Origin: Verrucomicrobiia bacterium
GTDB taxonomy: Bacteria; Verrucomicrobiota; Verrucomicrobiia; Limisphaerales; Palsa-1400
Length of the DNA: 64,000 nt
Direction of reading: 5' to 3'
NCBI GenBank assembly: GCA_036501625.1
Contig: DASXZY010000009.1
Span: 28,117-92,116, forward strand
Part shown: in pieces, positions 26,409 through 63,582 of the stretch
Numbering within the stretch: the stretch's first letter is position 1
How the letters are laid out: each line of letters opens with the position of its first letter
Translations under genes and position numbers: made by a program
Notes under the pieces: generated by a model
The model's database searches: none
Seen by the model: the letters and a program-made list of their open reading frames with translations, nothing else
What the model was told of the DNA's origin: nothing

Positions 26409-26504
26409 ATGAAAAAAGTTAAAGCTCGCAAGCAGTGGAAGAAACCGCAAGTCAAAGCCGTCCAACTTTGTTGTGAGTGTACGGCTTACGTCGGCGCGGA
26501 ATAA
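26409..26504 (+). CDS. pqqA: Coenzyme PQQ precursor peptide PqqA (31 aa), not in the ORF track
   Basis: Hand translation gives MKKVKARKQWKKPQVKAVQLCCECTAYVGAE*. The spacing WKKP-x9-E-x-T-x-Y matches the PqqA consensus (e.g. WKKPAFIDLRLGLEVTLY) with conserved Glu and Tyr. It sits immediately upstream of pqqB. Confidence 0.7.
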   Translation: MKKVKARKQWKKPQVKAVQLCCECTAYVGAE

Positions 26505-26512
26505 TTCGCTCT

Positions 26513-28394: not shown

Positions 28395-28395
28395 T

Positions 28396-29640: not shown

Positions 29641-29715
29641 GCGCGGTTAGCTCAGTGGTAGAGCATCACCTTGACACGGTGGGGGTCACAGGTTCAATCC
29701 CTGTATCGCGCACCA
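29641..29715 (+). tRNA. tRNA-Val (anticodon GAC)
   Basis: GCGCGGTtaGCTCagtggtaGAGCaTCACCttGACacGGTGGgggtcACAGGttcaatcCCTGTATCGCGCacca. The 7-bp acceptor stem (one GU), D, anticodon and T arms all fold. Anticodon loop is TTGACAC. The 3' CCA is encoded. Confidence 0.85.
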
Positions 29716-30549: not shown

Positions 30550-31087
30550 CCCCGGATATTTCAGTTTTTGGGCGAGGCTCCGGCCGAGGCGTTCCGGCGG
30601 CTTGGAATCAATGTTAATGCAGCCGGTCGGCAGATCAGTCGGCGACGGACCCGTCTAAGTTTTTTTGATGTGTTCTACGTCCTCCATTCGGCCATTCCTA
30701 AAAAGGCATTCAATTAAGTCAATCCAATTGCCTTCAAAATGACGCCAACGATATCCCTTATAATAAGCAATTATTGTGACAGACCGTGCGGGTCGAGGTT
30801 CCAGCCCCGGTAATTTGACAACGCGCTGTTGTGTGCCATCGTAGTGCCGTAGCCTAAGCTGGCTCGCCTTCCTGCGGGCCAGCGCGGGGGACCCAATTCC
30901 CGGATGCTTGCATTTCGGGACGGGGCGAACGGCAGAAGACTGCCGAGGTCACCTTCAGGACCCAGCCCGACAGCTAACCTCGCCGGCGTCTGGAAGGGCA
31001 ACCCTCTTGGTCCCGCGTGTGTGGGAATCTCATGGTGCCCCAATCGCAATGTCGTTGCCTCATCGCGCGGCCTAAAACCGTTGCGGG

Positions 31088-37651: not shown

Positions 37652-37658
37652 GGGAAAT

Positions 37659-45900: not shown

Positions 45901-48900
45901 GTATTCGTCAGCGTGCAAAGGTCCACCGCGCCGGGATTGAGCGTCACCACCGGCCACGGCACCGAAGTCTCAAAAGTGGTGTCGAGCGTGAACTGGTAAT
46001 GATCGGGAATCACGGTGGGGGTGACGACCCAGGTGTAATCGACCAATTGGAGGCTGAGGAAGGCGGTCAGGTCATTGGTCTGCCCTCCGGCCACGAGCAG
46101 CGTGGCAGAGTAGGTCGCGTGTTCGGGCGCGGAGATCGAGACGGTATAATACGCGGCCGTCAGATTGGAAAACAAGGCGACGCCGGACTCGCCGGTGACG
46201 AAGTTAGTGACATTGGTTCCGCTGGCGAAATCGTTGACCATGATGGTGGCGTTGGAGACGTTCGGATTGCCCGCGCCATAGACGCTCAATTCATCCTGCA
46301 CCGTGACTTGCAACGCGCCGTGCTGGCTTGAGACGCACTCAAATGTGAACGGCACTGTGGATTGGGAATTGGAGCCGCTCAGAATCAAACTGCTGGAATA
46401 CGGCCCCAACGGCAGGGTCGCCGATGGAGTCAGCGCCAGCATGACTTGGTTGCTTTGGCCAAGGGACATCGAAGGAATCGGCTGCGGCGTGACCAAACTC
46501 AACCAGGGCGCCTGCGGAAGAATGATCGACACCGGGCCGCTCGGCAGGCCGCCGGCATTTCCAATCCAAAACGGCACCAGCGTTTGGCCGCCTTGCACCA
46601 TGTTGGCCATCAGTGTGCCGGGAGTGGAGGTCAACTGGGCCGCGAGATATGTGACTGAGGCGTTGACTGGAAGAAAATTGGCAGTCCCTTGGTCGGTGGT
46701 AATCCGAATATTGAATTGATCCTGCACGCCCTCGTTCGCGGGCGCCGTGAAAACGCATGTCAACTGCACGGAGCCGCCGCCAGGGAGAGTGCCGGGAACG
46801 CTCAGTTGCTCCTGAAGGTCGGGCGTGTTGCCGATGACCGTCGCGGTCAACCCCGTCAGCGGCACACTAGTCAGATTGGAAAGGGTGATGATGTTCGTTT
46901 GCGGGACTCCGGGAACGAGCGTGTCGTTAATGCCGTTGGGACTTAGCCCCATTCCAACAATGGTGAAACTGGCTTGGGCCGCCGGCACGGCCTGGCCTGG
47001 CAAATTCGCGGCGATTTGATAGAAGCCCGTTTCAGTCGGAAGCGGCATGAAATCGACCACGCCCGAACCCTGCGCGCCCGTGATGAGCGGCAGGCTGCGG
47101 ATGATTCCCGCGGTGGAAATCCAGGCAACAGCCGCTTGGCTGCCCAGCGGCGCCTGATTGGAGCAACTGAACGTCTGCACGGAAATCGGCACCACGCCGC
47201 CCATCGGGTAAATGGCCTCGCTCGGCTGCGCGCTGGCGCAATAGCCGAGCACCGTCAGCGCGGCGGGCGCGCTGGTGACCGAGCCAGCCAGGTTGCTCAC
47301 GATTACGCTGTAGGCGCCCTGGTTGCCGATTTGGACATTGTTGAGAGTGAGCGTGCCGCTGGTCGCTCCCGACACCGGCGAATTGCCCAACTGCCACTGA
47401 TACGTGAAGGGCGCCGTCCCATTCACACTGACAGTGAACAACGCCGTTCCGCCCGCGCCGACCGATTGCGGTTGTGGCGGAGTGGCTACCGACGGCCCAA
47501 CGATGACATTCAACGCGGCCGCGTCGCTCGTGACCGTGCCGAAGGCATTATTGACAACAAGCTGGTAGGCGCCTGAATCGGTGAACTTGGCGCCGGGAAT
47601 GGCCAGCACGTTGCTGTGCGAGCCGCTGATGCGGCCATTGTCGGCCAGCGGGGCGCCGTCAAAGAGCCATTGATACGTGAAGGGGGGCGTCCCGATGGCG
47701 ATGGCGCTCAATTGCGCGGTGGCGCCCTGCGCCAGATACATGCCTTGCGGTTGCAGGGCGATGTCCGGCGATGGCGTGGCGGCGGAATAAATTCCAGCCA
47801 TTTCGACGCGCAAACCGGTGGGGCCGCTGGCCGCGTTCGTGACAACAAAATCCAGCGTGTTGGCGCCATAAGCGAACCAGCCGGGCGCGTTAATGGAAAA
47901 AGCCTTCCAGGAAGTTGCATTGCCTCCGCTAATGCCGGTGGCTTGCCCGTTGAGATAGACCCCTTGCAATTGGCCGGCCGCGGCGAATTGGCCCGTGATG
48001 ACGGCCGTGGAGGGATCCGCGTTGCTGATGACAAAAGCCGTCTGATAATCGTAAACTCCGGGGGGACCATCGAGGTTGGTGTCGTTGGCCGGCCCGATCC
48101 ACGCTGAAGAAGCATCCGCCCCGATCCAGGAAACAGAACCGCCGCCAATCTGGATCAAGTTTGTGCCGGCCGGCACGCTGGCCAGCCGGTAATGGAAATC
48201 GCCATCGGTGAGGGCGGGCAGAAGCGCGCCGCTCGCATCCACGCCCGTATCGAAGAGCGTCGCCAGCGAAAGTTTGACAGTGACCGCGGCCACGGCGCTG
48301 GTGGCGGCTCCGTAGGCGTTGGTCAGAACCACCTTGTAACTGCCGGCATCGCTCATCGAAGCCGGGGAGATCGTCAGCAAATTGCTCTGGGAGCCGGTCA
48401 CGCCGCCGCCGTCAATCAGATTTGTTCCGTTCAAGGACCATTGATAGGAAATCGGCGCAGCCCCGATGGCACCGACAGATAATTGCAGGGCCGCCCCGGA
48501 GGAAACGGTCTGGCTCCGCGGTTGAACGGTGACGGCCGGCACGGGATAATGAAAATGAGCCAGGTAATTATGATCGCCGTTGACCACGACCTGGAAGGAG
48601 GCGTTGGTCGTCACCAGAAAACCGTCCTCGCTCCAATAATCGAACACATACGGAAGCGGAACGTTCAGTGGCGCCGCCGTGACGGTGGTCGAAGCGCCCA
48701 GCGGGAATGAGCCGCCGCCCGCAGTCATGCCCGCGCCTGCCGGGGTGACCGCTGTCGCAATCGTGTAGAGCGGGCCGGTGTAGGGCGCCAGGATAAAGTT
48801 GACGGCCTGGACGGAGTTGCTGACAGTGGCTGTTTGGTTTGTCGCCGGATTGTAGCCGCGGGCGGGCAGTCCCTGCAGGCCGACCGAATAAGCGCCGTTG

Positions 48901-51900
48901 GGAACGCCCAATGAGTAATTTCCGTTGACGTCGCTTGACGCGCTCAAAAACAAGTTGGTCTTGGCCCCGGTGGCAAAGGCGAAAACATTGATATTGGAGA
49001 CGCCGTGGCCCTGGCCATCCATGATCGAACCGTTAATTTGCGAAGTGGAGGCGGGGTTGGCAGCGGTCTGCAATATGGCTGCATTCGCGCTGTAGATAAG
49101 CTGCAAGCTTTCGTTCAGGCCGACATTGGGAAAGACTTCATTGGTAAACGTGCCGATGCGCGAACCATAGGCCAGAATTGGAAATGCGAGGCCCGAGCTT
49201 GGCAGATAGCCATTGTTAAAGGTGGCGGAGATGCCGCCGAGCAATTGGGCGCTGCCGTTCAGGTTGATGACGCCGAAATTCGCCGGGCCGCTGATGCCGC
49301 AATTAAGCGTGCCGCCAGCCAAGGTGTAGCTGTTTAAAGTAATCGTGCCAGTTTGCGCGCTGATGACGCCAAGGTTCGTTATGGCGGGACGAATCGTGCT
49401 GACCCCGGTTCCAGCCGATTTCTGGAAGATGCCTTGGTTGATGATCTGTGGCAAACCGGCGCCGCTGCCGTCGTAATAAACATCCAAGATGGCATCCTCC
49501 TGAATGTCCACCAATCCGCCTGGCAAATTGATCAGTTCCCCCGTTCCGCCGCCATAGCTGGCATATTCTATGCAGCGCCAAGTTCCGCCGATGATTCGGA
49601 TCGTCCCAGCATTATTCAAAACGCCAGACATGTCGTAAAAGCCGCTATCGCCAGCCGGCAGCGTCAGGCTTCCATTGGGGGCGATGGTTAAAGCGCTGCC
49701 GGCTCCAATGCGCCCGCCCGTCCATGTCAAAGCCGTCGCGTTCGTCCCGCTTCCGGTGAGCACGCCGCCGGACAAGACGGCGTTCGAGGAAGCCAGGGTT
49801 CCGTTCATCGCGAGCGTGCCGCCATCTATTAAGGTGGTTCCCGCGCCGGTGAACGCGCCGCCAGCCTGATAGGCGCCGGCCGAAAAAGCCACGGCGCTGC
49901 CAGCATCAGCCTGGAAAGACCCGGCACCGCTGCCGCTAGCGTTGACCGAAATCGTCCCCGTTTGCACCTCCACCGCGCCTATGTTGTAAAACGGCGGGTT
50001 GATGACAGAGTTGCCCGTGCCGCCGGATTTGCGCAGAGTGCCTTGATTGATGATCTGCGGCGAACCGGTCCCGCTGTTGTCGGTGAAAAAATCGAAGTTG
50101 CAATCCGCTTTGATGTCCACCAGCCCTCCCGGCAAATTGACTAATTCTCCTGTGCCGCCGCCGACTGGACTGTACTCAATGCATCTCCAATAGCCGCCGA
50201 CCAGGCGAATGGTTCCGGCGTTGGTCATCACACCGGAAAACCAATAATCACCCTGCACGCTGGCGCCCGCCAGGGTCAGAATGCCGGTGGCGGCCACGGT
50301 CAGAGTGCTGCCAGCCCCGATGGCCCCTCCGGTCCATGTCAGGTTGCTCTGGATGACTCCGCGTCCTGTCAACGTGCTTCCAGAAAGGATGGCATTGGAA
50401 ACGGATGAAACTCCATCCAGGATGACCGTGCCGCCGCTCATCGATGCTGAGCCCGCGCCTGTGAGCGGGCCATCAATTTCATATGTGCCGCCCGAAAAAC
50501 CCACCGTGGCGCCCGCGTTAGCCTGGAACGTTCCGGCGCCACTTCCACCGTCGGCAAACGAAATCGTCCCCGTTTGGGCGATGACCGTGCCAGTGTTATA
50601 AAACGGCGGGTTGATGACAGAATTGCCGGTGCCGCCGGATTTGTGAAAAGCGCCCTGGTTGATAATCTGCGGTGAACCGGTCCCGCTGTGGTCGTTGAAA
50701 TAATCGAAGTTGCAATCCGCCTGGATGTCCACGAGGCCTCCCGGAGCGTTGACTAATTCTCCGGTGCCGCCGCCGATGGGACTGTACTCAATGCATCTCC
50801 AATAGCCGCTGACCAACCGTATCGTTCCGGCATTGGTCATCACGCCGGAAAACCAATAATCACCCTGCGCGCTGGCGCCGGCCAGGGTCAGAATGCCGTT
50901 GCTGGCCACGGTCAAGGAGCTGCCCGCCCCAATGGCCCCGCCGGTCCACGTCAGGTTGCTCTGGATGACTCCGCTCCCCACCAGCGTGCTGCCGGAGAGG
51001 ACGGCATTGGAGATGGATGAAGTTCCATCCATGATGACTGTGCCGCCGCTCATCGATGCTGAGCCGGCGCCTGTGAGCGGGCCATCAATTTCATATGTGC
51101 CGCCCGAAAATCCCACCGTGGCGCCCGCGTCAGCCTGGAAAGCGCCCGCGCCACTGCCGCCGCCAGCGAAGGTGATCGTCCCCGTGTGGGCGAGGACCGT
51201 TTCCGCGTTATAAAACGGCGGATTGACAACAGAATTGCCTGTTCCTCCGGATTTGCGAAAAGTGCCTTGGTTGATAATCCGCGGTGAACCAGTCCCGCTG
51301 TTGTCGTTGAAAAAATCAAAGGAGCGATCCGCTTGAATATCCACCAAGCCTCCGGGCGCATTGACGAGTTCTCCTGTGCCTCCACCCTCAGCGTTGTATT
51401 CGATGCATCTCCAATTACCGCTGACCAACCGGATGGTTCCGGCGTTGGTTATAATGCCTGAGAAATCGTAATCCGAAGCGCTGCTGGGGCCGTTCAAAGT
51501 GACGACTCCGTTGCTCGCGACATTCAAAAGCGCGCCGGGCCCGATGCGTCCGCCGGTCCAATTCAATTGTCCGCTAATGGCCAGCGGGCCGCCGTTAAGG
51601 ATACCGCCGTTCCAGGCGATAATGCCGTTGGGATTGATGACGCTGGCATTGCTCACAGTCAGATTAGGGCCGTTGGCTTGCAACGTTTGTGCGCCGCTGG
51701 CCCCGCCCAGCGCCAGGCTGTGGACCACCGGGCTGATGTCCAGTCCGACAAAGTAAGTGCCGCCAGCGGCGATGACGGCGTCGTCGGAGGCGCCCGGAAC
51801 CTGGTTTGGGCTCCAGTTGGCGGGGTTGTTCCAAAAACCGCCAATGGTGTTGGTCCAGTTAATCGTCGCCGCGCCAGCGGCCATGCTGGCCAGCCACATC

Positions 51901-51947
51901 GTCAAGAGAACGCCGGCGGATCGTTTTACGCAAGGGCTCACATTCAT
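42987..51947 (-). CDS. Giant repetitive secreted/surface protein (2986 aa). It has four tandem ~204-aa repeats, Ig-like regions, a 23-residue poly-Gly linker and the shared C-terminal module.
   Basis: Signal peptide [28 protein letters not shown]. Repeats are ...[61 protein letters not shown]... x4. The linker is [26 protein letters not shown]. C-terminus is ...[21 protein letters not shown]...[11 protein letters not shown]. Confidence 0.85.
   Translation of the reverse strand: [2986 protein letters not shown]
45501..45567 (-). repeat. Hexanucleotide simple-sequence repeat (GGAGGC/GGTGGC)~11 that encodes the poly-Gly tract inside the 2986-aa gene
   Basis: Plus-strand gcctccgcctccgcctccaccgcctccgccaccgcctccgcctccgcctccaccgcc. 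Confidence 0.8.
49250..51770 (-). repeat. Four tandem ~612-bp near-identical repeats inside the 2986-aa gene
   Basis: For example gtactcaatgcatctccaatagccgcCgaccagGcgaatggttccggcgttggtcatcac... at 50166 versus ...gtactcaatgcatctccaatagccgcTgaccaaCcgtatcgttccggcattggtcatcac at 50778 (>90% identity over hundreds of bp). More diverged copies are at ~49560 and ~51380. Confidence 0.8.
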
Positions 51948-52111: not shown

Positions 52112-52127
52112 TGGCACAAATCATGCA
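52112..52127 (+). promoter_or_regulatory. Candidate sigma54 (RpoN) -24/-12 promoter upstream of pilN
   Basis: TGGCACaaatcaTGCA matches TGGCAC-N5-TTGCA with exact GG/GC spacing. It is ~215 bp upstream of the pilN ATG on the same strand. Confidence 0.35.
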
Positions 52128-52342
52128 ACAGGTTGGGCATGAACTGGCTGTTAAGTCGGGCGGCGCACAAGCCGATATACGTGCCATGCGGCGCTTGAGT
52201 ATCGGTGAAACACGTAAAATGGGCCTGACGGACACAAGGGCATGGCCTGCGCGGAGAAATTTTCCACGGATTGGAGAAGAGGCCTCGCGCGGAAAACGGG
52301 TGAACAAGATGGGCCGGCCGACCGCAGCCAGGATTTAGATTT

Positions 52343-53020
52343 ATGGCGATACGCCTTAATTTATTGGCCGAGGCACAAGCTGCCGAGGAGATGCGGCGCA
52401 AAAACCCAGTCAAGCTGGGCATTTGGATCGGCAGTTTTTGCGTCGTGGTCGTTCTGTTGTGGATTCTCGAACTCCAGTTGGAGATCGGGGTCAGCAAGAA
52501 AACCTACAATACCATCGCGCAGTCGTGGAAAGACGACAACGCCAAGTATTCCACGGTGACCAACAATATCGCCCGCATCGCGCAAATGGAGCTGAAATCG
52601 CGGGCCTTGGACACTTTAGCCACCAATCGCTTCTATTGGGCGCCGATCCTCAACGCACTCCAGCAAACCGTGATCGACAACATCCAGATCATCCGGCTGT
52701 CCGGCGTGCAAAAATACACCAAGGAAGAGGCCAAGACGATTGGAGCCGGCCCGACCGCCAAGAGAATTCCAGGCGACGTGGTGGAAGGTGTCAGCCTGTA
52801 TATCGACGCCAAGGATTTCAATCCAAACGCCCAAAATTATGACAAGTTCAAAGAGACACTGTGCAACAATGATTTCTTCGTCAAGAACCTCGGGCGGAAA
52901 GACGGTTTTATTTTGGACGGCGTGCTGAGCACTCCCACAGTGGAGGCAGCCGACCCGAACCGCCAATTCGTCACCTTCAGACTGGCCTCGCATTGGCCGG
53001 ATAAGCGCCGCGATGATTAA
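52343..53020 (+). CDS. pilN: Type IV pilus assembly protein PilN-like
   Basis: MAIRLNLLAEAQAAEEMRRKNPVKLGIWIGSFCVVVVLLWI has the INLL motif, a basic stretch and a single TM. ~225 aa. Confidence 0.65.
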   Translation: MAIRLNLLAEAQAAEEMRRKNPVKLGIWIGSFCVVVVLLWILELQLEIGVSKKTYNTIAQSWKDDNAKYSTVTNNIARIAQMELKSRALDTLATNRFYWAPILNALQQTVIDNIQIIRLSGVQKYTKEEAKTIGAGPTAKRIPGDVVEGVSLYIDAKDFNPNAQNYDKFKETLCNNDFFVKNLGRKDGFILDGVLSTPTVEAADPNRQFVTFRLASHWPDKRRDD

Positions 53021-53597
53021 ATTATCCAAACCTCAAAAAGAACAGTTGACAGGCGTCGGCGTTGCCACGATCGCCTTGATGGGCGTGCTTTGGTATTTCG
53101 GCGTCAGGGCCAAACAGGCGGAATTGTCCAAGTCTGAGAGGAGCACCGCCCAAATGCGGGACACCCTCAAAAGGGCCGAGGGCACCATGCGCCAGGGAGA
53201 AGATATTTCGGACAAGCTCCAGGCGCAATCCCAGGCGCTTGACAAGCGCGAAGCTCTGCTGGCGCCCGACCGGGATTCTTATGCCTGGATCATCAGCACG
53301 ATTACGCCGTTCCTCCAAGCCCGCAAAGGAGTGAGCATCTACCATTATTCCCAGCCGGAAACGAGCGAACTGGGGGTGCTGCCGGATTTTCCCTACAAAT
53401 GGGCCACGTTTCACCTGGAAGGCACGGGCTACTACCATGATTTCGGAAAATTTTTCGCCGATTTGGAGAATAATTTTCCCTGTTTCCGGGTGCAGAACCT
53501 GGAAATGGGAGTTGGGGCGGGCGCCGGGGTCCAGCCGGAAAAATTAAACGTGGCTTTCGATTTAGTGGTGCCTGTCAAACCGAGCGATACAAAATGA
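53013..53597 (+). CDS. pilO: Type IV pilus assembly protein PilO-like
   Basis: Short cytoplasmic N-terminus, a TM (GVGVATIALMGVLWYFGV), a coiled coil and a C-terminal domain. It overlaps pilN by 8 bp. Call is by position and architecture. Confidence 0.55.
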   Translation: MIKLSKPQKEQLTGVGVATIALMGVLWYFGVRAKQAELSKSERSTAQMRDTLKRAEGTMRQGEDISDKLQAQSQALDKREALLAPDRDSYAWIISTITPFLQARKGVSIYHYSQPETSELGVLPDFPYKWATFHLEGTGYYHDFGKFFADLENNFPCFRVQNLEMGVGAGAGVQPEKLNVAFDLVVPVKPSDTK

Positions 53598-54100
53598 GGA
53601 CCACCTTTCCATTTTCGCAAATCCTTAAGACGGCCGGCGCGGGCGCGCTGCTGATGTGCGTCGTGTCGGCCTGCAAACCCAGCCCTCCGCCCTCTGGATT
53701 GGCCAAAGGCCCAGCGGTCAAAGCGAAGCCGGCGGCCGTGTCCACCAACCAGGCTGCCCCGCTGAATGCCTCTGCGTTCGTGGAACTTATGGCGCCCAAA
53801 GGCAGGGACCCGTTTTTTCCAAACTCCAACCGGCGCGATCCCGTCCCGGCCTCCACTGGACCGTCCGCCAAACCGGCGCCCGCAGCGGAAGTGGCGCTCA
53901 AAGGCATCGTCGGCGATGCCAGCCACCGCCTGGCTGTCATCAATAACGCCATCCTGGAACCGGGCGAGACCGGCAGCGTGCGAGTGACCGGCGGACGAAT
54001 AAAAGTCAAATGCATGGAGATTGGCTCTGATTTTGCTGTGGTGTTGGTGGAAGGCGAAATTCAGTCAAAGCGGCTGCAACTCAACAAGAAGGGGTTCTGA
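53594..54100 (+). CDS. pilP: PilP-like lipoprotein
   Basis: Lipobox LLMCVVSAC, an Ala/Pro-rich linker and a C-terminal beta domain (RLAVINNAILEPGETGSVRVTGGRIKVKCMEIGSDFAVVLVEG). ATGA overlap with pilO. Confidence 0.5.
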   Translation: MRTTFPFSQILKTAGAGALLMCVVSACKPSPPPSGLAKGPAVKAKPAAVSTNQAAPLNASAFVELMAPKGRDPFFPNSNRRDPVPASTGPSAKPAPAAEVALKGIVGDASHRLAVINNAILEPGETGSVRVTGGRIKVKCMEIGSDFAVVLVEGEIQSKRLQLNKKGF

Positions 54101-54136
54101 CGCCAGAATTTTCGTCATCCCCCACCAAAGTGGACA

Positions 54137-55921
54137 TTGCGTAATTATATGAAAATAAAAAGCATCTTCGCGGCTCTTGCCGTGCTGGCCACCTGCGTGG
54201 CCGCGCCAGCTCAGGACAACCCGGCGTCCCCGCCGGTGCCTGTGTCTCCGCCCGTGCCGGCTTCGCCACCTGTCCCCAGCAGCAACACGCCGCCGGTGGA
54301 AGTGACCGCGCCGCCGCTGCCGGAGGGCCGCAACGTTTCCTACGCGCCGCTGATCGGCCCGGACGCGGGCCCAACCAACGCACCCGCCGCCGACGAGGAA
54401 AAGACCGACGTAACCTTCGCGGATGTTTCTTTGACTGACGCCATTACTTCGCTGGCAGTGCAGGCGCAGCAAAACATTGTATTTGACCCAAGTTTGCAGA
54501 TCGCGCCCGACGGCCATCCGATCCCGCCGCCGCAAGTGACTGTCAAATGGCGCAACATCACGGCCATGCAGGCCCTGCGCGCGCTCCTCGACAACTACGG
54601 ATGGCAGCTCGTTTGGGACTCCCGCACCAAAGTCGGACGCGTCACCAAGAAAGACCCGGCGGCCAAGGACCCGTTGATTTTCACAGTGGTGCAATTGCGC
54701 TACGGCAGCCCGACCAATCTCGTCAAGGAACTGCAGGACAACCTTTCCCCCGGCAGCGCGATCATCCCGGATATGCGCACGCACCAATTGATTATTCGGA
54801 CCACGGAAAAAGAATTGCTGGGCATGGAGGCATTGATCACCAAGCTCGATACGCCGACGCGCCAGGTTCTCGTCGAAGCCAAGATCGTGCAGACCAGCAA
54901 AGACATTTCCTCGGCCAAAGGCGTGGATTGGACGGGCACGCTCCAGGCGCAGCATGTCACATTCGGCAATGGCTTGACGCAAGGCACATCGACGCTCGGG
55001 TCGGCGCCCGGAAGCAACATCCTCGGCTCGCTCACGTCTCCGGGCGGATCGGGTATTTTCGGCAGCGCCGCCAATCCTGCCAATGTCACCAGCAATGTCA
55101 GCACCTTTACGTCCTCGTTTTCCGGCAATCCGTCGCAAGGCGGCGGCCTTTCGCTCAACACCGCGCGCGGCTTCAGCCCGGCCACCGCATTCCTCAATGC
55201 GGACGGCGTCTCCGCTGTGCTGTCGTTCTTGAACACGGATAACGACACCAAGACCATCGCCTTCCCGCGCACGGTCGCCCTCGACGGCGTGCCGACGGAA
55301 CTGGCGGTCGTCCAAAACATTCCCATCTTTCAGCAAACGCAGAGCGCTCCCGCCGCGGGCGCCGCGCAAGGCCTGGCCACGATCCAGCCCACCTACAACC
55401 TTTCCGTGCAAGGCACGATTCTCAATGAAGTCGGTGTCAAACTCACAGTGACGCCGCGCATCGCCGGTCCGACGAATGTCCTGCTGGATTTGAAGCCGGA
55501 AATTTCCGAGCAAGGCGCGACGGTGACGGAGACGTTGAACGGGCAGCCCAATCAGGCGCCAAGTTTCAGCCGCAGCCGCATCACGACGCAGGCCGCGGTG
55601 CCCAGCGGTTACACATTGGTGCTGGGCGGCATGGATCAGGACGTCGTCGGCAAGACTTACACCAAAGTGCCATTCTTCGGTGACATCCCGGGCCTGGGTT
55701 ATCTATTCCGCAGCGACAGCAAGACTCACTCGGCGCAAACTATCCTGATCTTTGTCACGCCCACAATCATCGCCGACAACGATTATCAATTGGCCGATTC
55801 CCGTTTTGAAAAGCGCAAATCTCCAGGAGCCCCCGCCATGAACGAACCGGCATGGGACACTGGCGAGCCTTATGACTGGACCAAGCCCAAGAACCGGGTC
55901 AGCCCAGACTATCAGCCCTAA
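54137..55921 (+). CDS. pilQ: Type IV pilus / T2SS-type secretin (PilQ/GspD family)
   Basis: Signal peptide, Pro-rich N-terminus, N-domains, and the C-terminal secretin signature ...LVLGGMDQDVVGKTYTKVPFFGDIPGLGYLFRSDSKTHSAQTILIFVTPTII. Confidence 0.85.
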   Translation: MRNYMKIKSIFAALAVLATCVAAPAQDNPASPPVPVSPPVPASPPVPSSNTPPVEVTAPPLPEGRNVSYAPLIGPDAGPTNAPAADEEKTDVTFADVSLTDAITSLAVQAQQNIVFDPSLQIAPDGHPIPPPQVTVKWRNITAMQALRALLDNYGWQLVWDSRTKVGRVTKKDPAAKDPLIFTVVQLRYGSPTNLVKELQDNLSPGSAIIPDMRTHQLIIRTTEKELLGMEALITKLDTPTRQVLVEAKIVQTSKDISSAKGVDWTGTLQAQHVTFGNGLTQGTSTLGSAPGSNILGSLTSPGGSGIFGSAANPANVTSNVSTFTSSFSGNPSQGGGLSLNTARGFSPATAFLNADGVSAVLSFLNTDNDTKTIAFPRTVALDGVPTELAVVQNIPIFQQTQSAPAAGAAQGLATIQPTYNLSVQGTILNEVGVKLTVTPRIAGPTNVLLDLKPEISEQGATVTETLNGQPNQAPSFSRSRITTQAAVPSGYTLVLGGMDQDVVGKTYTKVPFFGDIPGLGYLFRSDSKTHSAQTILIFVTPTIIADNDYQLADSRFEKRKSPGAPAMNEPAWDTGEPYDWTKPKNRVSPDYQP

Positions 55922-55936
55922 CGATCTTCGCACTTT

Positions 55937-58900
55937 ATGACTCCTATTGACACACACGACCAGGGGAAGGACTGGCTTGAGCGCGGCCGTTCCATGCGGT
56001 GGATTTTGCTGGGCTGGCTGAGCGCCTGCCTCTGCGCCTCCGCCCAGGTGACGGTGGATACCATCGGCGGCGGAGTGCGGGTTGAATGCGGCTCGGCGGC
56101 GGGATTTTTCGGCGGGAACACTTACGAGCAGGCGCAGTTTAACGCGCCTTTCTCCTGCGCGCTGGATACCAACGGCAATCTTTGGATCGCGGACAAAAAC
56201 AACTCTGACATCGAGCAAGTCAGCGAAGCTGGCGACAAGACCGATAGCATCACGACTGAATACTATACAATCAGCGGCACGTCGCCTCACTTCGTAACAA
56301 ACTATCACGCGTTTACGAACGTCACCGCCGTGGCGGTGGACCCGGCCAATAATCTTTACGTTCTGCTGCCTTCGCCGCCCCAAGTCATCAAATACAGCCT
56401 GACCAGCGAATCTTCGACCATCAATCTCCTTTCCGCGGAGCAATTGGGCGGTGCGCCGGCCGGGGCCGTGCCATCGGCCATGGCCGTGGACGCCAGCTCG
56501 AATGTCTTTCTGGCGTTTACCAACGGTGTCATCCTGCGATTTCAAATGCTGGACATCAATCCGCCGCCCACCATTTACTCCAACAGCTACGTCAATGGAG
56601 TTTCTCCCCGCATCCATTACGTCGTGAACAGTTTCGGATGGAAGCCTTCCGGCCTGGCGTTAACGGCCAATGGGCAACTCGCCGTCAGCGACACCATGAA
56701 CAACGCGATCTGGCTGGTGGCCACCAATGATTATACTGCCAACTCCGGCCCTCATTTGTTGACTGGCGGCAACGGAGCCGGTTACAGCGATGGAAGTTCC
56801 ACGTTTGCCCAGTTTGACCAGCCTTACGGCTTGGCGGCGTCCTCCGACGGGCATCTGGTCGTGTGCGACACGATGAACAATCGCGTGCGCGTTATTGATA
56901 CTTCCTCCAATACCGAGACCATTTACGGAACGGGCAGCAACGTCTGGACGGGCACGTGCTGCAGTTGCAATCCGACCTTTTACGCCGGCTGGGTGGACGG
57001 AACGGCTGGCAGCGCCTTCAACAGCGCGTCCGGGCGCGAGCCAGTCAGCGTGGTCATTTCGCCTTCCGGTTCGCTTTTCGTGACGGAGCTGTATTACAGC
57101 CTTATTCGCGAAGTCACTGGCGCGCCTTTGCTGCCTGTCAATCTCAACGGAACTTTGGCGGTGGCCATATCGGAGGCGGCGACGGGAATCAGCACCACCA
57201 ACGGCACGCTCAACGGCAGCATTAATCCGGGGAATGAGACGACTTCCTATTTCTTTGAGTATGGCCTGACGACCAACTACGGAACCTTCACGGCGACCAA
57301 TCAACTGATCACCAACTTGACGGTCAGCCAGCAAGTCTCCGCGGTGATTAATAGTTTGACGCCCGGAACAATCTATCATTACCAACTGGTGGCTTACAAC
57401 GGGTTCGGATTCTCCTTCGGAGGCGACACCACGATCGTGACGCCTGCTGAACTGCCTGTCATCGAAACACTGCCAGCCACCAACATCACTTTCGGCAGCG
57501 CCACCCTGCAAGCGATCGTCAATCCCGAATACTCGCAGACCGCGGTCACCTTCCTGTGGGGCATCGGCACCAACTTGACAAATATCACGACGCCCATCGT
57601 CTTGGCGACCAACTTGGCCGGCAACCAGCAGGTGTCCGTCACGCTCAGCAATTTGACAGAGGGGGCCATCTACTATTTTGAAGCGGTGGCCAGCAGCAGC
57701 GGCGGCAGCGCTGCCGGAGCGACGCTTGTTTTCAGCACGGTTTCGGGCGCGGTGGTGACGTTCCCCGCGACCAACGTGACCCCCAGCAGCGCGACTCTGG
57801 AGGCGACCGTCAATCCCGGAGGTTCGCCGGCGACAGTTTATTTTCAGTGGGGCACGACGCCCAGTTTCGGCAGCCTGACCGCGCCAGTCAATGTGACGCA
57901 AAACCTGGGCAGCGTTCAGGGCGTCTCTTCAAGCTTAGGCAATTTGCAGCCGGACACGACTTACTATTTCCAGGCGGTGGCCAATAATACTGGCGGAACT
58001 ATCTACGGCAACACGTTGAGTTTTACGACACCGCCGACGCTTTCATTCTATCCCAGCAACGGCTACTTCCCGGAGTGCGTGACTATATTTGTCACCAGCA
58101 GCGTGCCGACGATCTATTTCACGACCGATGGCTCCGCGCCGACGACGAACAGCCAGGAGATTATTCTGGCCGCCATGCCCCAGCCAGGAACCTACTCCGG
58201 TTCGTTAATTTGGTGCGAGCCTCTGCTGAATTTGAGCGCGCTGCATCTGCTGGCCTCCAATGGCACTAATAGTTCAACGTTGATGCAAGGCGGATTCCCG
58301 GCGACTAATTCAATCGGGTTTCCGCAAGCGTTGTCCGGCGGCCCCGGCTCCCATCTTTATATTCCGGTGGCGGTGCAACTCCAAACCAACGTGACGCTGC
58401 AATCGCTGCAATTTCGTGTTGAAATCAATGCCAATCAAAAAGGAACGCCCCAGATTGCGCCGATTCAGTTGCAGCCGCTGACCCCCAATGATTTGGTGGC
58501 GCTGCCCGGCCCCGCTCCCGCGGACGCGCCGGTTTCGTTCCAGACTTTTCCTTACACGACCTCGAGCAACGGACAGGGACTGGTCATCACGGCCGAAGGC
58601 GGCAGTTCCGGGCTGAACATGCAAGGCTCTGGCGTGGTGGTGATGCTTCATATCCAGATGCCGGTCAGCGGCGTTTACGGACAAAGCTATTCTCTGAATG
58701 TGTTGAATCCTTCAGGCACTTCCGACGGCCAGCAAACTCCGGTTGGGCTGACTACCCTAGCCGTGCAGACTTTGACCAATCAATACACGCCCTATATGGT
58801 CGGTGATTCCTCTCCCAGCACCGGCTATAACGCCCAGCAATTTGGCGACAAGGGTGACATCAACGGCATGGGTGCCGCCGGCCTGGCCAATGCAGATGTC

Positions 58901-60076
58901 AATAATGCGATCTACGCCTCCGTCGGCATCCACGTGCCGCCGTCCGACAGCGACATTTTCAACGCCATGGATGCTTATCCTCCGGATTCGGCCGGGCACG
59001 GCGGCGACGGCGTCATCCAGTTCCTGGATTGGCAAACCATCCTCGGACGGTCTCTCGGCGTGTCAATTTATCTGGGCATGGACACCAATAACTACCTGCG
59101 TTATTGGACCAATGGCGATACCACGTCGCCATCGCACAGCCGCTACAACGAATGGATTCCGGGCGGGCCAGCCGTGCCGCTCTCCGCTGAATCCGGACTC
59201 GCTTTCCACGGCGCCTCGAAACTTGAAGTCGGCGGAACTCCGGCGGGATTGGTCTGGTTCTGCCAGGCATCCGTCGGCTCCGGCACAATTGTTGACGCGC
59301 TGCCGGGCAACACTTACTCGCTGCCGGTTTATGTGAATATTCTGCGGGGTTACAACGTGGCCGGGATGCAATTCCGCGCCACCGTGACAGGCAGCACGGG
59401 CGCGCCCGCCGTCAGTTCCATCCAATTTAATCCAACCGCCGGTGTGCCTGCCCCGATGGTTTTGCAGGGGTTGGGCGGCAATGACAAAATTCAGGCTTGG
59501 AGCTTCGGTTCGTTTGCCACGCCGCTGGCGAGCAGCAATTTGCTTGGAACCATTTCATTCCAGGTGCCGAACGGAGCGGCCCCAGGGGCCTGTTACGCCC
59601 TGCATTTTTCGGGCGTGGACGGCGCGCCGGACTTTACCGTGGACTACCAGATGGACAGCCATCCCGGCTTTGTCTGGGTCATGTCCGCCGCGCAGCAGCC
59701 GGCATCCATCACATCGGACGAATGGAAGATGGCGTTTTTCGGCAGTTTGACCAGCAGCCAGGCGGCTGACAATTCCGATGCCGACGGCGACGGAGCGCTT
59801 AACTGGCAGGAATATCTGGCCGGGACTAATCCGACCAACTCCCGATCTTATCTGCAATTCAACAGCGCCAATCTCTACAACAACGGCGTTCGCGGCATCG
59901 CCATCAACTGGCTGACCGCGCCCGGCAAGACTTACGTCCTGCAATCCAGCCCGGCTTTGATGAACCCGCAGTGGACGCCCATGAACACCAACACCGGCGA
60001 TGGCAACCAGTTCCAATGCATCGTCACCAACGTGAGCGGCACCGCCCGCTTCTACGAGATACGCCTCCAGCCATGA
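55937..60076 (+). CDS. Giant secreted NHL-repeat beta-propeller protein (1379 aa) with five Fn3-like repeats, a DxDGDG calcium-binding-like motif and the shared C-terminal module
   Basis: Signal peptide MRWILLGWLSACLCASAQ. NHL-like repeats (FNAPFSCALDTNGNLWIADKNNSDI; FDQPYGLAASSDGHLVVCDTMNNRVRVID). Five ~100-aa repeats (TNGTLNGSINPGNETTSYFFEYGLTTNYG...). C-terminus reads ...DADGDGALNWQEYLAGTNP...GKTYVLQSSPALMNPQWTP...ARFYEIRLQP. It starts 16 bp after pilQ. Confidence 0.85.
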   Translation: MTPIDTHDQGKDWLERGRSMRWILLGWLSACLCASAQVTVDTIGGGVRVECGSAAGFFGGNTYEQAQFNAPFSCALDTNGNLWIADKNNSDIEQVSEAGDKTDSITTEYYTISGTSPHFVTNYHAFTNVTAVAVDPANNLYVLLPSPPQVIKYSLTSESSTINLLSAEQLGGAPAGAVPSAMAVDASSNVFLAFTNGVILRFQMLDINPPPTIYSNSYVNGVSPRIHYVVNSFGWKPSGLALTANGQLAVSDTMNNAIWLVATNDYTANSGPHLLTGGNGAGYSDGSSTFAQFDQPYGLAASSDGHLVVCDTMNNRVRVIDTSSNTETIYGTGSNVWTGTCCSCNPTFYAGWVDGTAGSAFNSASGREPVSVVISPSGSLFVTELYYSLIREVTGAPLLPVNLNGTLAVAISEAATGISTTNGTLNGSINPGNETTSYFFEYGLTTNYGTFTATNQLITNLTVSQQVSAVINSLTPGTIYHYQLVAYNGFGFSFGGDTTIVTPAELPVIETLPATNITFGSATLQAIVNPEYSQTAVTFLWGIGTNLTNITTPIVLATNLAGNQQVSVTLSNLTEGAIYYFEAVASSSGGSAAGATLVFSTVSGAVVTFPATNVTPSSATLEATVNPGGSPATVYFQWGTTPSFGSLTAPVNVTQNLGSVQGVSSSLGNLQPDTTYYFQAVANNTGGTIYGNTLSFTTPPTLSFYPSNGYFPECVTIFVTSSVPTIYFTTDGSAPTTNSQEIILAAMPQPGTYSGSLIWCEPLLNLSALHLLASNGTNSSTLMQGGFPATNSIGFPQALSGGPGSHLYIPVAVQLQTNVTLQSLQFRVEINANQKGTPQIAPIQLQPLTPNDLVALPGPAPADAPVSFQTFPYTTSSNGQGLVITAEGGSSGLNMQGSGVVVMLHIQMPVSGVYGQSYSLNVLNPSGTSDGQQTPVGLTTLAVQTLTNQYTPYMVGDSSPSTGYNAQQFGDKGDINGMGAAGLANADVNNAIYASVGIHVPPSDSDIFNAMDAYPPDSAGHGGDGVIQFLDWQTILGRSLGVSIYLGMDTNNYLRYWTNGDTTSPSHSRYNEWIPGGPAVPLSAESGLAFHGASKLEVGGTPAGLVWFCQASVGSGTIVDALPGNTYSLPVYVNILRGYNVAGMQFRATVTGSTGAPAVSSIQFNPTAGVPAPMVLQGLGGNDKIQAWSFGSFATPLASSNLLGTISFQVPNGAAPGACYALHFSGVDGAPDFTVDYQMDSHPGFVWVMSAAQQPASITSDEWKMAFFGSLTSSQAADNSDADGDGALNWQEYLAGTNPTNSRSYLQFNSANLYNNGVRGIAINWLTAPGKTYVLQSSPALMNPQWTPMNTNTGDGNQFQCIVTNVSGTARFYEIRLQP

Positions 60077-63000
60077 GAAATACAGTTACCAGTTACAACC
60101 GGCTCGCTCTGGGAATCCTGGCCGCATTTGTGTTCGCGTGGCCGGCTCGCGGGCAATTCGTCGGCACCGCTGTCAGCGGACTCGGCGCGCCCTCAAGTGT
60201 CGCGGTCGATTCCAACAACAACCTTTACATCGCCGACACCTACAATAATCGCATTGCCGTTTATGTTCCCTCCAGCGGATCGCTGACCACCCTCGCTGGC
60301 TCGGGCGCCCAAGGCACCAACGATGACAATGGCGCCGATGCCAGCTTTGATTTGCCGTGGGGCATGGTCGCGGTGGGGAATGGCCTGATCGTTTCCGACT
60401 ACGGCAGCGGTTTGATTCGCTTCGTAAGTTTCGATGGCGACGTTACGACCATCGCGGGCCAGGCATTTTCGTTTTTGAACGCGCCATTGATTACCAATGG
60501 GCCTGCGGATTTGGCCACCTTCAGTTTCCCGGCTGGACTCGCGGTGGATAACGGGGGAAATATTTACGTGGCAGACTCGCAGAACAATGCCATCCGTGAG
60601 ATTGACACCAACGGCAACGTCTCCACCGTGCCCGTGAATAATGGATATAATTTCAACCTGCCGACGGCCGTGGCCGTGGACCAAAATGGCTATATCTGGG
60701 TGGCCGATTCCGGCAACAACCGCATTTGCCTCGTCAGCAATGGAATCGTCACGGTCAAGGCGGGAAGCGTCACTGGCGCGGCGGGAACCAACGATTCCAA
60801 CAAGCCGCTCAACGCGCTATTCCGTTCGCCTTCGGGTTTGTGCTGGCTGCCCAATGGCTCCGCCCTTTATATAAGCGACACTGGCAATGACACCATCCGC
60901 AGTTACTTTTTTACCAATGGCTCCTACCAAGTGCAAACCGTCGGCGGACTCCCCGGCCATCCGGGGTTAGTCAATGGCGCGCTTTCGACGGCGGAACTGA
61001 GCAGCCCGATTGGCGTGTGCGCCGATCCGGCGGATTTTGGCTTCTATGTGGCGGACAGCGCCAACAATGCCGTGCGCGTCCTCCAGCCGACTGCGCCCTT
61101 GCCGGCTGTGCCCGCGCCCGTGTTCGGCTATGTCACGTTCCCGGCCAGCGCGAATCCGGCCAATACATCCATCTTCGTCGCCTCCTCTTCGGCCATTTTC
61201 AACAACATCACCAATATCGCGATCGAAGCCGATCAAGGCTCGGAAACCTACATTTCGTTTGGGCCGACCGGCTCCGTCATTCCTCGCCCGGGGCCTGGCA
61301 CTGACACCCCGCCGATCTATCCCGGCGATGGCAACAACCCATCGGAGATCGCCTCCGCCATTGCGCCCGGAGCCGGCACCAATGACATCACCATTTACGC
61401 CATCAGTGTTCAGTCGGGACGGCAATCCAGCCCAATTGTCAGCGCGCGGTTCCAGTTTATCACGGCCAATCCAAGCGTCGCGGGCAACAACGCCGCCAGC
61501 CTTCTCATCAACGACCCGACGGCGGGCGCCGACATGTATTACACCATTGACGGCTCAACACCGACGAACAACGGGACCAGCCAGGGGCCGATTAGCGCCG
61601 GCACCACCTTGTCCCTGGACATCACGACCAACGTGATCTTCCAGATTCGCGCGTTCACAACCGGCCTGGCTCCCAGCCAGATCATCCACACAGCCCTTTC
61701 GTTCTCCAATGTTTTCGGGAACCAAATGACATGGGGATTCGCCAGCGGCCTTGGTTCCACGCATTACATCACCGCGCGCAACATAAGTTTCTCCGCCCCG
61801 GTGACCTTCATCCCCATTCCCGGCAGCCCGCTCATCTACACGATGCAATATGACTTGACAGTGACTAACAATGGGGCCGCCGCGCCGCCCATGTTAACCT
61901 CCAACAACTTTATCACGCACCTGCTGGATCCCGATCCGACGCCGCCGATTTTTAGACTGCTTCCTCCGGGCATTTTTGATGAGCTGGATGGCCTGACCAA
62001 TAACGGCTTCTCGAACACACAGACAGATTCGCTGGAACTGGCCTGGCTTGTCACGCCGCCCGTGACCAATTTGTACAAAAGCCCGAACCTGCTGGAGTAC
62101 TCCGGCGTGGACGAAACGCTGCTCACGCTGGAAGCCAATGGAACTCTGATGGGCGAACTGAGATTTGTTATCCCGAACAACGCCCTTCCCGGCGCTCCTT
62201 TCACGCTGCGAATCTCGCACTCATCGGCCAGCACCTATGTCGATCCCGATTGCTGCGGACAGCCGATCAATGTGCTCGTGCAGGCTCCAACCAACGGCCC
62301 TCTGACCGGCACCGTGCCCAACGCTGTCAAATTGGTGACGGTTCTGAGCAACAATTCGCCCGAGAGCGCGCACCTGGTCGGCGATGTTTTCCCTTATACC
62401 TGGTATAACATCGGGGATTTCGGCGACGGCGTGCTGCTGAACGACGACGTCATTGAAACGATGGAATTCGCCTTTGACACTTTCGGCGCGTATCCCACCA
62501 ACAACCCGTATTACAACGCGATGGATTCCGGCAACGGCACCGTCGATACATTTTACGGCGCCACCGATGCGTATATTGACGCGATCTCCAATGGCGACGG
62601 CTACATTGGTTTGGACGACGTCTATGTGACACTCCGCCGTTCCCTGGACCCCGCCCTTGTCAATTATTCCCGGTATTGGTCCGGTTCCAATTGGGTGCCC
62701 GCTGTTTACAACAGCTCCGTTCAACTGAGCGCGCATAACACCTCGCCGGCGAAGCTCGTCGCGAGCGCGCCCCGTTATGTCACCGTGGGGGCCGATCAGG
62801 TCCAAACCGGCGGCGGCCTGACGGCGCAAGTGCCCATCCGCGTGCTCGCGGCCGACGCCGTTTATCCGATTAAGGTGACGATGTTTAACGTCGAGATCGA
62901 TCCGCTGGACGGCTCGCCGCCCATCACCGCCGAAGTGACATTCAACGCCGTGTCCAATCTGGGCGCGCCTTACGCGGCGATTTCTGAAGGAATTAACTAT

Positions 63001-63582
63001 TACGGCGCTGCCTGGCTGGACTCGACCGTTGCGGGGGTGAGCGGAACCAGCGTCATCGGAACGCTCACCGTCACACTGCCTCCGAACGTCACTTCCAATT
63101 CCGCCTACCGGGTCCATTTCGACCAGTTCAGCGCGTCCCCGAACGGCCTGGCTCTTTTCAAAACGACAACGCGCGACGGATTGATTACCGTTGGCAACCG
63201 CAGCGGCTCCAGTTGGAACGACGGCATTCCTGACACTTGGCGGCTGCTCCATTTCGGCACCATTTACAATTCTCTCTCCGCGGCCAATGAAGATCCCGAT
63301 GGCGATGGCGCGTCCAACTGGCAGGAATTCATTGCCGGCACGGACCCGCTGGATGCCTCGTCCGTGTTCAAGTTCACGCCGTCCGCGGGGCCGTCCGGGC
63401 AATACTTCACATTGCAGTGGCCCTCGGTGGTCAACAAAAGCTATTCCATCCAGTATTCCACCTCGCTCGGAGGCGCCTGGAGCGCTGCCGCCAGCAACAT
63501 CTCCGGCAACGGCCAGCCATTGCAATGGACTGACACCAACGCCTCCGCCGGCGCGCGCTTCTACCGCGCCTTGGTGCAATAA
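60073..63582 (+). CDS. Giant secreted NHL-repeat protein (1169 aa from MRNTV; 1203 aa in the track) with a DPDGDG motif and the shared C-terminal module
   Basis: ATGA overlap with the upstream giant gene. Signal peptide MRNTVTSYNRLALGILAAFVFAWPARGQ. NHL repeats (PSSVAVDSNNNLYIADTYNNRIAVY; FPAGLAVDNGGNIYVADSQNNAIREID; LPTAVAVDQNGYIWVADSGNNRI). C-terminus reads ...EDPDGDGASNWQEFIAGTDP...KSYSIQYSTSLGGAWS...ARFYRALVQ. Confidence 0.85.
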   Translation: MRNTVTSYNRLALGILAAFVFAWPARGQFVGTAVSGLGAPSSVAVDSNNNLYIADTYNNRIAVYVPSSGSLTTLAGSGAQGTNDDNGADASFDLPWGMVAVGNGLIVSDYGSGLIRFVSFDGDVTTIAGQAFSFLNAPLITNGPADLATFSFPAGLAVDNGGNIYVADSQNNAIREIDTNGNVSTVPVNNGYNFNLPTAVAVDQNGYIWVADSGNNRICLVSNGIVTVKAGSVTGAAGTNDSNKPLNALFRSPSGLCWLPNGSALYISDTGNDTIRSYFFTNGSYQVQTVGGLPGHPGLVNGALSTAELSSPIGVCADPADFGFYVADSANNAVRVLQPTAPLPAVPAPVFGYVTFPASANPANTSIFVASSSAIFNNITNIAIEADQGSETYISFGPTGSVIPRPGPGTDTPPIYPGDGNNPSEIASAIAPGAGTNDITIYAISVQSGRQSSPIVSARFQFITANPSVAGNNAASLLINDPTAGADMYYTIDGSTPTNNGTSQGPISAGTTLSLDITTNVIFQIRAFTTGLAPSQIIHTALSFSNVFGNQMTWGFASGLGSTHYITARNISFSAPVTFIPIPGSPLIYTMQYDLTVTNNGAAAPPMLTSNNFITHLLDPDPTPPIFRLLPPGIFDELDGLTNNGFSNTQTDSLELAWLVTPPVTNLYKSPNLLEYSGVDETLLTLEANGTLMGELRFVIPNNALPGAPFTLRISHSSASTYVDPDCCGQPINVLVQAPTNGPLTGTVPNAVKLVTVLSNNSPESAHLVGDVFPYTWYNIGDFGDGVLLNDDVIETMEFAFDTFGAYPTNNPYYNAMDSGNGTVDTFYGATDAYIDAISNGDGYIGLDDVYVTLRRSLDPALVNYSRYWSGSNWVPAVYNSSVQLSAHNTSPAKLVASAPRYVTVGADQVQTGGGLTAQVPIRVLAADAVYPIKVTMFNVEIDPLDGSPPITAEVTFNAVSNLGAPYAAISEGINYYGAAWLDSTVAGVSGTSVIGTLTVTLPPNVTSNSAYRVHFDQFSASPNGLALFKTTTRDGLITVGNRSGSSWNDGIPDTWRLLHFGTIYNSLSAANEDPDGDGASNWQEFIAGTDPLDASSVFKFTPSAGPSGQYFTLQWPSVVNKSYSIQYSTSLGGAWSAAASNISGNGQPLQWTDTNASAGARFYRALVQ

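Follow-up and report, generated by a model that had tools for sequence, protein, structure and literature searches.

Why should a set of type IV pilus-type genes that ends in a secretin run straight on into genes for two very large beta-propeller proteins? The question is raised by an operon in a 64,000-nucleotide (nt) stretch of contig DASXZY010000009.1 (assembly GCA_036501625.1, positions 28,117 to 92,116), from a Verrucomicrobiia bacterium of the Limisphaerales; the whole of this stretch is referred to as the window. On reading the open reading frames (ORFs) of the window, six were found on the plus strand spanning 52343-63582, in the order pilN, pilO, pilP, pilQ, giant 1 (G1) and giant 2 (G2):

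52343-53020, plus strand: pilN-like gene, 225 amino acids (aa); cytoplasmic N-terminus with the peptide IRLNLLAE, a single transmembrane helix and a periplasmic domain.
53013-53597, plus strand: pilO-like gene, 194 aa.
53594-54100, plus strand: pilP-like lipoprotein gene, 168 aa; lipobox VSAC and a C-terminal beta domain.
54137 (TTG) or 54149 (ATG) to 55921, plus strand: secretin gene pilQ, 590-594 aa.
55937-60076, plus strand: giant 1 (G1), 1379 aa.
60073-63582, plus strand: giant 2 (G2), 1169 aa.

Layout of the operon

The six same-strand genes are as tightly spaced as a preliminary description of this DNA had reported, with an overlap of 8 bp between pilN and pilO and ATGA overlaps at both the pilO/pilP and the G1/G2 junctions. 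The gap between pilP and pilQ is 36-48 nt, depending on the start of pilQ, for which public gene calls take the ATG at 54149. The spacer between pilQ and G1, previously given as 16 bp, is 15 nt when read from the sequence. The upstream ATG of G1 is credible, as it gives the protein a long basic n-region, a hydrophobic core and an AxA-Q cleavage context, signal-peptide features that its orthologues share.

In a consensus scan judged against shuffled sequence, neither the pilQ/G1 nor the G1/G2 junction had a terminator-like or promoter-like site beyond expectation, and such sites were not in excess in the region as a whole. The genes located 3' of G2 are unrelated (GST-like and PhoH/PIN), so the operon unit stops at 63582. 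The six genes are tightly coupled, with G1 and G2 predicted to be translationally coupled to the secretin operon, and from this layout we infer their co-transcription.

Conservation of the arrangement in other Verrucomicrobiota

A pattern scan with one genome per species provided 80 loci, all from Verrucomicrobiota by sequence context. The six window proteins were compared by BLAST with the ORFs of these loci, and the 69 loci with at least 3 kb of downstream sequence were counted. The order N-O-P-Q followed by one to four NHL giants on the same strand was found in 49-50 of these 69 species-level loci. Giants were present after the secretin in every locus whose secretin was at least 49% identical to that of the window (22/22), and in 27-28 of the 47 loci below this value. 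The gaps between secretin and giant were mostly of 0-50 nt, and 4-nt overlaps between G1 and G2 recurred in many loci.

The linkage was also followed from the side of the giants. Six distant homologues of G2 (34-41% identity), picked solely for lying on long contigs, were all encoded directly behind pil(M)NOPQ. Recurrence in about 50 other species puts the arrangement beyond chance, and the adjacency of pilQ and giants in relatives, on which the preliminary description had made its reading depend, was conserved from both sides. In the literature searched, no account was found of NHL or cohesin-dockerin giants encoded behind a verrucomicrobial pilMNOPQ. The components are of known kinds, and the conserved combination of pil(M)NOPQ with giants is new.

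Identity of the pil genes

For each of the N, O and P proteins, a profile of about 30 orthologues was compared with all solved structures. The best match in the Protein Data Bank (PDB) was PilN of Myxococcus xanthus for the pilN profile (33 orthologues; 3jc8, E 5e-5) and PilO of the same species for the pilO profile (3jc8, E 2e-4), and the top match of the pilP profile, a weak one, was M. xanthus PilP (3jc8, E 0.19); all three come from one machine model of the type IVa pilus (T4aP). With Pfam, neither N, O nor P was matched, the secretin being the only one recognised among the four small genes. A weak NCBIfam match of the pilO product to GspM (E 1.3e-6, below the cutoff) is consistent with the known relationship between PilO and GspM.

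The conserved features of these proteins are of the expected types. In PilN, the peptide IRLNLLAE occupies residues 3-10, and N6, L7, A9, E15, R18, R19 and P22 are invariant in the 33 orthologues, making the cytoplasmic peptide the tightest cluster of invariant residues in the protein. The Cys and the C-terminal motif of the pilP product are conserved among its orthologues, as is the position of its gene between pilO and the secretin, with a 4-nt overlap of pilO and pilP in 39 loci.

No match to PilM_2/FtsA was obtained anywhere in the window. Among distant relatives (secretins about 36-47% identical), pilM was located 2-20 nt 5' of pilN in 44 of 48 loci, encoding a protein of 350-360 aa that matches Pfam PilM_2 with E 1e-21 to 1e-30, whereas in the close clade it was found at this position in none of 20 loci and other genes, such as that for a DUF6580 protein, were present there. 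The absence of pilM is, then, a trait of the clade of the window and not of the whole system. As PilN retains its invariant N-terminal peptide of the PilM-binding type, the comparison suggests that pilM was moved, not lost, in the close clade. The clade concerned comprises loci L001-L023 and L071 (secretins at least 49% identical), several of which have the DUF6580 gene in place of pilM. In another locus (L087, 2236-3972), a single 578-aa PilM protein replaces the separate pilM and pilN genes, an apparent PilM-PilN fusion with GspL-like architecture.

Because N, O and P match components of 3jc8 and relatives carry an upstream pilM, the operon is assigned to the T4aP-type pil(M)NOPQ set, and its pil genes are a predicted type IVa-pilus-type alignment and secretin module. 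The gene names proposed earlier were in this way supported by the Myxococcus matches, the one for pilP being weak, and by the pilM found upstream in distant relatives. The type II secretion system (T2SS) would require a set of GspC/L/M, GspD, pseudopilins and GspE/F that is not present here: Pfam and NCBIfam gave no matches to GspC, GspL, GspE or GspF, and only the sub-threshold match to GspM (O) and one at the level of GspD (Q). The occurrence of separate PilM and PilN proteins in relatives also points to the T4aP type rather than to T2SS.

The secretin was recognised by Pfam through Secretin (3.5e-36) and Secretin_N (6.8e-8). It is organised as a signal peptide, a Pro-rich linker, an N0-like domain assigned by reading the sequence and not by a model match, an N1 domain (Pfam Secretin_N) and the secretin domain; Pfam gave no match to AMIN. 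The NCBIfam models of GspD and PilQ score it equally, at 155 bits and both below their cutoffs, and in the PDB profile search solved GspD chains were slightly better (1.9e-34) than PilQ (1.7e-28), so that the secretin taken alone stands about as near to GspD as to PilQ. The protein is 100% identical to one from a Verrucomicrobiae metagenome-assembled genome.

There are no pilM, pilB, pilC or pilT genes in the window, and its single prepilin-type gene (29782-30549) lies about 22 kb from the operon. In 88 related loci examined, neither a PilB/PilT-type Walker A gene (0/88) nor a prepilin gene was found within 10 kb of the operon. The lack of pilM, pilin and ATPase genes beside the operon had been remarked on before, and this part stands; for the pilin and ATPase genes it is not distinctive, because they are likewise absent within 10 kb in all 88 loci. 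In Pseudomonas aeruginosa, pilMNOPQ is also separate from pilABCD and pilTU.

Domain structure of the giants

Both giants have Sec-type signal peptides that are conserved in their orthologues, and repeated NHL blades are found in both (Pfam NHL, 5.7e-32 in G2 and 5.6e-15 in G1), with Fn3-like Pfam matches in G1 as well. Their heads are NHL propellers of the type of the PknD sensor, with matches to PknD-sensor-derived propellers at E 1e-37 to 5e-23. The predicted parts of each protein are the following:

G1, cleavage near aa 36: signal peptide.
G1, about aa 40-400: NHL propeller.
G1, about aa 415-700: three Fn3-like repeats.
G1, F-hand motifs at aa 970-979 and 1022-1032: cohesin/dockerin-like module, preceded by an Ig-like CHB_HEX_C domain.
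G1, aa 1281-1292: TSP3 motif.
G1, nt 59870-60073: terminal Fn3-like domain, ending in RFYEIRLQP.
G2, about aa 30-400: PknD-type NHL propeller, preceded by the signal peptide.
G2, between the propeller and cohesin-like domain 1: Ig-like CHB_HEX_C/Fn3_assoc domain.
G2, aa 575-770 (nt 61795-62382): cohesin-like domain 1.
G2, F-hands at aa 781-793 and 840-850 (nt 62413-62622): dockerin-like helical domain.
G2, about aa 902-1039: cohesin-like domain 2.
G2, aa 1074-1085: TSP3 motif.
G2, aa ~1100-1169 (nt 63370-63579): terminal Fn3-like domain.

The last ~420 residues of the two proteins are homologous (G1 aa 953-1378 and G2 aa 767-1169), and the Fn3-like repeats of G1 are similar to repeats that occur in two further giants encoded in the window. 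The G1 orthologues range from 1,004 to 1,379 aa, with a variable number of Fn3 spacers. Those of G2 measure ~1,160-1,250 aa across identities of 34-70% and are evenly conserved, most strongly so in the dockerin-like part and around TSP3; this constant length and even conservation would fit a fixed, machine-associated role.

Residues 575-1169 of G2 were modelled with AlphaFold2 from 58 sequences (predicted local distance difference test 85.6, predicted template-modelling score 0.73), and the model runs from a first beta-sandwich through a four-helix domain to another sandwich, followed by a TSP3 segment, short and helical, and a small terminal sandwich. The top 35 PDB matches of this model in Foldseek were cellulosomal cohesins (E 2.9e-8 and target template-modelling score 0.73 to type I cohesins). 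The helical domain contains two dockerin-type F-hand motifs, GDFGDGVLLNDDV and NGDGYIGLDDV, both with counterparts in G1. As the Pfam Cohesin and Dockerin models do not match the giants, the assignment stands at the level of the fold only, and at this level the giants are predicted to carry a cohesin-dockerin-cohesin module with calcium-type motifs.

The shared C-terminal domain

The last ~70 residues of G1 and G2 align with those of two further giants of the window, encoded at 8990-15457 and 42987-51947 on the minus strand, with Y, Q, S, L, W and Y as invariant residues. A hidden Markov model made from the giant-type tags alone missed the other giants of the window, and a profile from the four tags was used instead, which detected 9,801 cluster representatives at E <= 1e-3 among 1.84 billion proteins. 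In these the domain is often present in 2-34 copies per protein, the last copy usually at the very C-terminus, and it is most like an Fn3-like module of Clostridium thermocellum. It has no transmembrane helix and no match to a domain of the type IX secretion system (T9SS). A tag resembling those of T9SS or PEP-CTERM was rejected, since neither a C-terminal domain of the TIGR04183 type nor the combination of motif, transmembrane helix and basic tail was found.

The preliminary description had noticed a C-terminal tag common to these proteins. A shared domain is borne out by the alignment of the four giants; a specific sorting tag gains no support from a domain that occurs in ~9,800 clusters, often in tandem. 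The "tag" is, on sequence grounds, a common Fn3-like building-block domain and not a demonstrated sorting signal.

This FYR Fn3-like domain forms tandem units of ~75 aa, in examples each ending in KFYRA.PY, in thousands of uncharacterised proteins (P0241, P0259 and others) and is covered by no Pfam or NCBIfam model. Both unlinked giants of the window end in it. The one at 8990-15457 has 2155 aa with PA14, Big_7 and CHB_HEX_C domains, and the one at 42987-51947, which adjoins pilN divergently, has 2986 aa with Ig I-set and CarboxypepD_reg domains.

Role of the giants

In the mechanism that we propose, a verrucomicrobium of the Limisphaerales/Pedosphaera type would have a single conserved operon to which two paralogous giants have been appended. 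These would be made in step with the secretin, carry a Sec signal peptide and fold in the periplasm, and then would reach the surface, or be held at it, through or at the PilQ channel, serving the pilus machine as accessory adhesins or built-in cargo. Each giant would consist of a ligand-binding PknD-type NHL head joined by Ig/Fn3 spacers to a calcium-type cohesin-dockerin-cohesin-TSP3-Fn3 base, and G1 and G2 would probably associate through their cohesin/dockerin modules. Export or anchoring of the giants through the secretin is plausible, and we put at about even the chance that they are accessory surface proteins or cargo dependent on the PilQ machine, a reading in which we infer the route, the surface exposure and the association of G1 with G2. 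In its favour are the overlaps and the short spacer, the T4aP matches of N, O and P together with the pilM upstream in distant relatives, a linkage conserved from both sides, the conserved signal peptides, the even conservation of G2, the cohesin and dockerin folds, and the precedents of Omnitrophota giants, SslE/YghJ, TcpF and CofJ described below. A wider version, in which the PilQ machine of the Limisphaerales type also exports or assembles a calcium-dependent cohesin-dockerin surface complex of NHL giants and might serve many FYR-ended proteins of the Planctomycetes-Verrucomicrobia-Chlamydiae (PVC) group, is speculative and rather unlikely.

Several observations weigh against a dependence on PilQ. 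In 19 of the 69 loci the operon ends at the secretin and unrelated genes come next; therefore, the secretin works without adjacent giants. Giant-linked and giant-less secretins interleave on a neighbour-joining tree, and no segment length or alignment column of the secretin separates them. The terminal domain is no specific address for PilQ, because it is also found on unlinked giants of the window and in the ~9,800 clusters. The giants have no prepilin motif or pilin-like feature, and a working pilus in this genome is an assumption, as pilM, pilins and ATPases, the distant prepilin-type gene aside, were not seen in the window.

A specialised secretin paralogue for the giants was rejected on the basis of the tree and of the segment and column comparison. 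The earlier proposal that the secretin pathway may be dedicated to the giants was thus overstated, as nothing in the secretin distinguishes operons with giants from those without. Because the two kinds of secretin interleave and no column discriminates between them, the giants look like an old facultative appendage of an ordinary pilMNOPQ operon, and not like the mark of a specialised secretin.

The same facts are what would be expected if the link were one of co-regulation only, the giants being ordinary surface or matrix adhesins that are expressed from the pilMNOPQ transcript for a joint appearance with the pili and that leave the cell by another route, possibly an unknown PVC pathway for proteins ending in the FYR Fn3-like domain. 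The terminal domain would then be shared with unlinked giants as a matter of course, and the giants would be dispensable beside the secretin without a matching change in it. However, co-regulation alone rarely preserves strict adjacency, a fixed gene order and overlaps of 4 nt while secretin identity falls from 72% to ~38%, and the six distant giant homologues were all behind a secretin, not scattered. We regard this explanation as possible, with a clearly smaller chance than dependence on the PilQ machine.

PilY1 and PilC are large proteins, exported by Sec and linked to pili; they have calcium sites and a propeller, which is C-terminal, and their genes lie with those of minor pilins. The giants resemble them in outline, by their size of 1,100-1,400 aa, Sec signal, propeller and calcium-binding motifs, and a conserved link to pilus genes would suit adhesins at the pilus tip or along the pilus that replace PilY1, with the C-terminal base on minor pilins and the NHL propeller at the tip. 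Yet homology to PilY1 was rejected, as no PilY1/PilC family match was found in Pfam or NCBIfam; the giants lack sequence relation to these proteins, their domain order is reversed, with an N-terminal NHL propeller, and their genomic partner is pilMNOPQ and not the minor pilin genes, prepilin genes not being adjacent. Such a role is improbable.

Equally poor prospects are given to a structural role of the giants beside the secretin, in the periplasm or outer membrane (as a ring, plug, stabiliser or pilotin-like component, in the manner of TsaP or the SlkA/SlkB plugs), since their adhesin-like modules (propeller, variable Fn3, cohesin/dockerin, TSP3) are unlike known secretin partners and the secretin of giant-less relatives works in their absence, although secretin-binding periplasmic proteins exist (PMC13392014), production of the giants is apparently coupled to that of the secretin by the short spacer and the overlap, and G2 is evenly conserved with a constant length.

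A dependence of the giants on the PilQ machine would be of wider concern. The linkage across about fifty species offers a concrete candidate for a cargo or accessory of the type IV pilus secretin, and the giants also offer a putative case of cohesin-dockerin assembly in a Gram-negative envelope. To our knowledge, both the crossing of the outer membrane by giant surface proteins of the PVC group and the working of verrucomicrobial pilus-like clusters, including the medically studied one of Akkermansia, are unsettled, and the linkage gives a handle on them. Even if the link were only regulatory, it would still define a conserved regulon of pili plus adhesins.

Comparison with known systems

The operon shares with the type IVa pilMNOPQ of M. 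xanthus and P. aeruginosa the N-O-P-secretin order, the overlapping genes, the INLL-type motif of PilN and a PilP-like lipoprotein. It differs in the absence of pilM from this locus and its close clade, in the lack of an AMIN match and in the one to four NHL giants appended.

Secretin machines encoded with a large Sec-dependent protein are known. SslE/YghJ of Escherichia coli is co-transcribed with T2SS-beta, PulA of Klebsiella is a T2SS cargo encoded with its system, and TcpF of Vibrio and CofJ of enterotoxigenic E. coli are exported by type IVb pili. The likeness extends to the co-encoding, export of the giants being presumed, whereas those proteins are single unrelated enzymes or small colonisation factors and here the proteins are paralogous NHL/cohesin-dockerin giants. 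With the cellulosome, the giants have in common a pair of cohesin-like sandwiches and, in a helical domain, two F-hand motifs of the form DxxDGxhxxxDD, but they belong to a Gram-negative host, have no glycoside hydrolase attached and do not match the Pfam families of that system.

In Omnitrophota, giant genes are preceded by gspD/E/F-type T2SS/T4P-like loci (bioRxiv 10.1101/2023.11.21.568195). This is a PVC-related lineage and, as here, a secretin-containing locus lies just 5' of genes for adhesin-like proteins of very large size that contain dockerin-like units. Their loci contain gspD/E/F, rcpC and more than 10 subunits, and their giants exceed 30,000 aa with transmembrane regions and SecA-like domains, whereas only pil(M)NOPQ is present here, and the giants, of 1.1-1.4 kaa, would be soluble Sec substrates.

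The products of the Amuc_1098-Amuc_1102 cluster of Akkermansia muciniphila are all enriched in the envelope fraction (PMC5332112, PMC4960237). This cluster, too, is from a verrucomicrobium and combines a secretin with a PilM-like gene and small proteins of the envelope, but Amuc_1098 is a 907-aa TPR-secretin and NHL giants are not reported there. The C-termini of G1 and G2 gave partial matches to the NCBIfam Amuc_1099 model (positions 101-191 of 321) at 16-26.8 bits against a cutoff of 50 bits, which is a lead only.

Upstream region

A possible sigma-54 promoter had been noted upstream of the operon:

52112-52127, plus strand: sigma-54-like -24/-12 match TGGCAC-N5-ATGCA, 215 nt 5' of pilN; weak candidate only.

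This site has one mismatch, and the window contains 5 such sites against 3.1 expected. No comparable site was present within 450 nt 5' of pilN in the 69 relatives, and no alignment was obtained for the upstream regions of the nearest ones. The promoter was consequently rejected, its count being at chance level and the site not conserved upstream of pilN. In 10 distant loci and in L088, the sequence TGGCAC-N5-YTGCT was found ~30-80 nt 5' of pilM. On the opposite strand, the gene of a sigma-54-dependent response regulator comes immediately after the giants in loci L083 (14064-15146, minus strand) and L087 (13623-15074, minus strand). The site is retained as a weak candidate because of these sigma-54-type sites before pilM in 11 loci and the activators that flank L083 and L087. 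Control by sigma-54 is plausible for the operon family in some lineages and unsupported for the operon of the window. A riboswitch or leader RNA upstream of the operon was also considered and rejected, none being found in Rfam.

Other loci in the window

Two plus-strand ORFs, at 3295-4662 and 6742-8301, are respectively a dnaA gene with the DnaA N-terminal, ATPase and C-terminal Pfam domains and, nearby, the gene of a 519-aa eCIS_core protein; the GC-skew profile of the window has no clean origin signal. Genes for a metallo-beta-lactamase-fold, a PqqC/TENA-family and a radical SAM/SPASM protein at 26477-29487 (plus strand) resemble a pqqB-pqqC-(pqqD)-pqqE cluster for biosynthesis of pyrroloquinoline quinone. 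A tRNA is located at 29641-29712. A two-partner secretion pair occupies 33167-39563 on the minus strand, with an ShlB/FhaC-type transporter carrying a POTRA domain (37659-39563) and a 1494-aa exoprotein with a two-partner secretion domain (33167-37651); an AraC-type regulator gene (39564-40475) adjoins the pair. A cyclic di-AMP riboswitch (30841-31003, plus strand; Rfam RF00379, 59 bits, E 3.7e-11) lies just 5' of a gene for a 600-aa SPFH/Band 7 protein (31088-32890).

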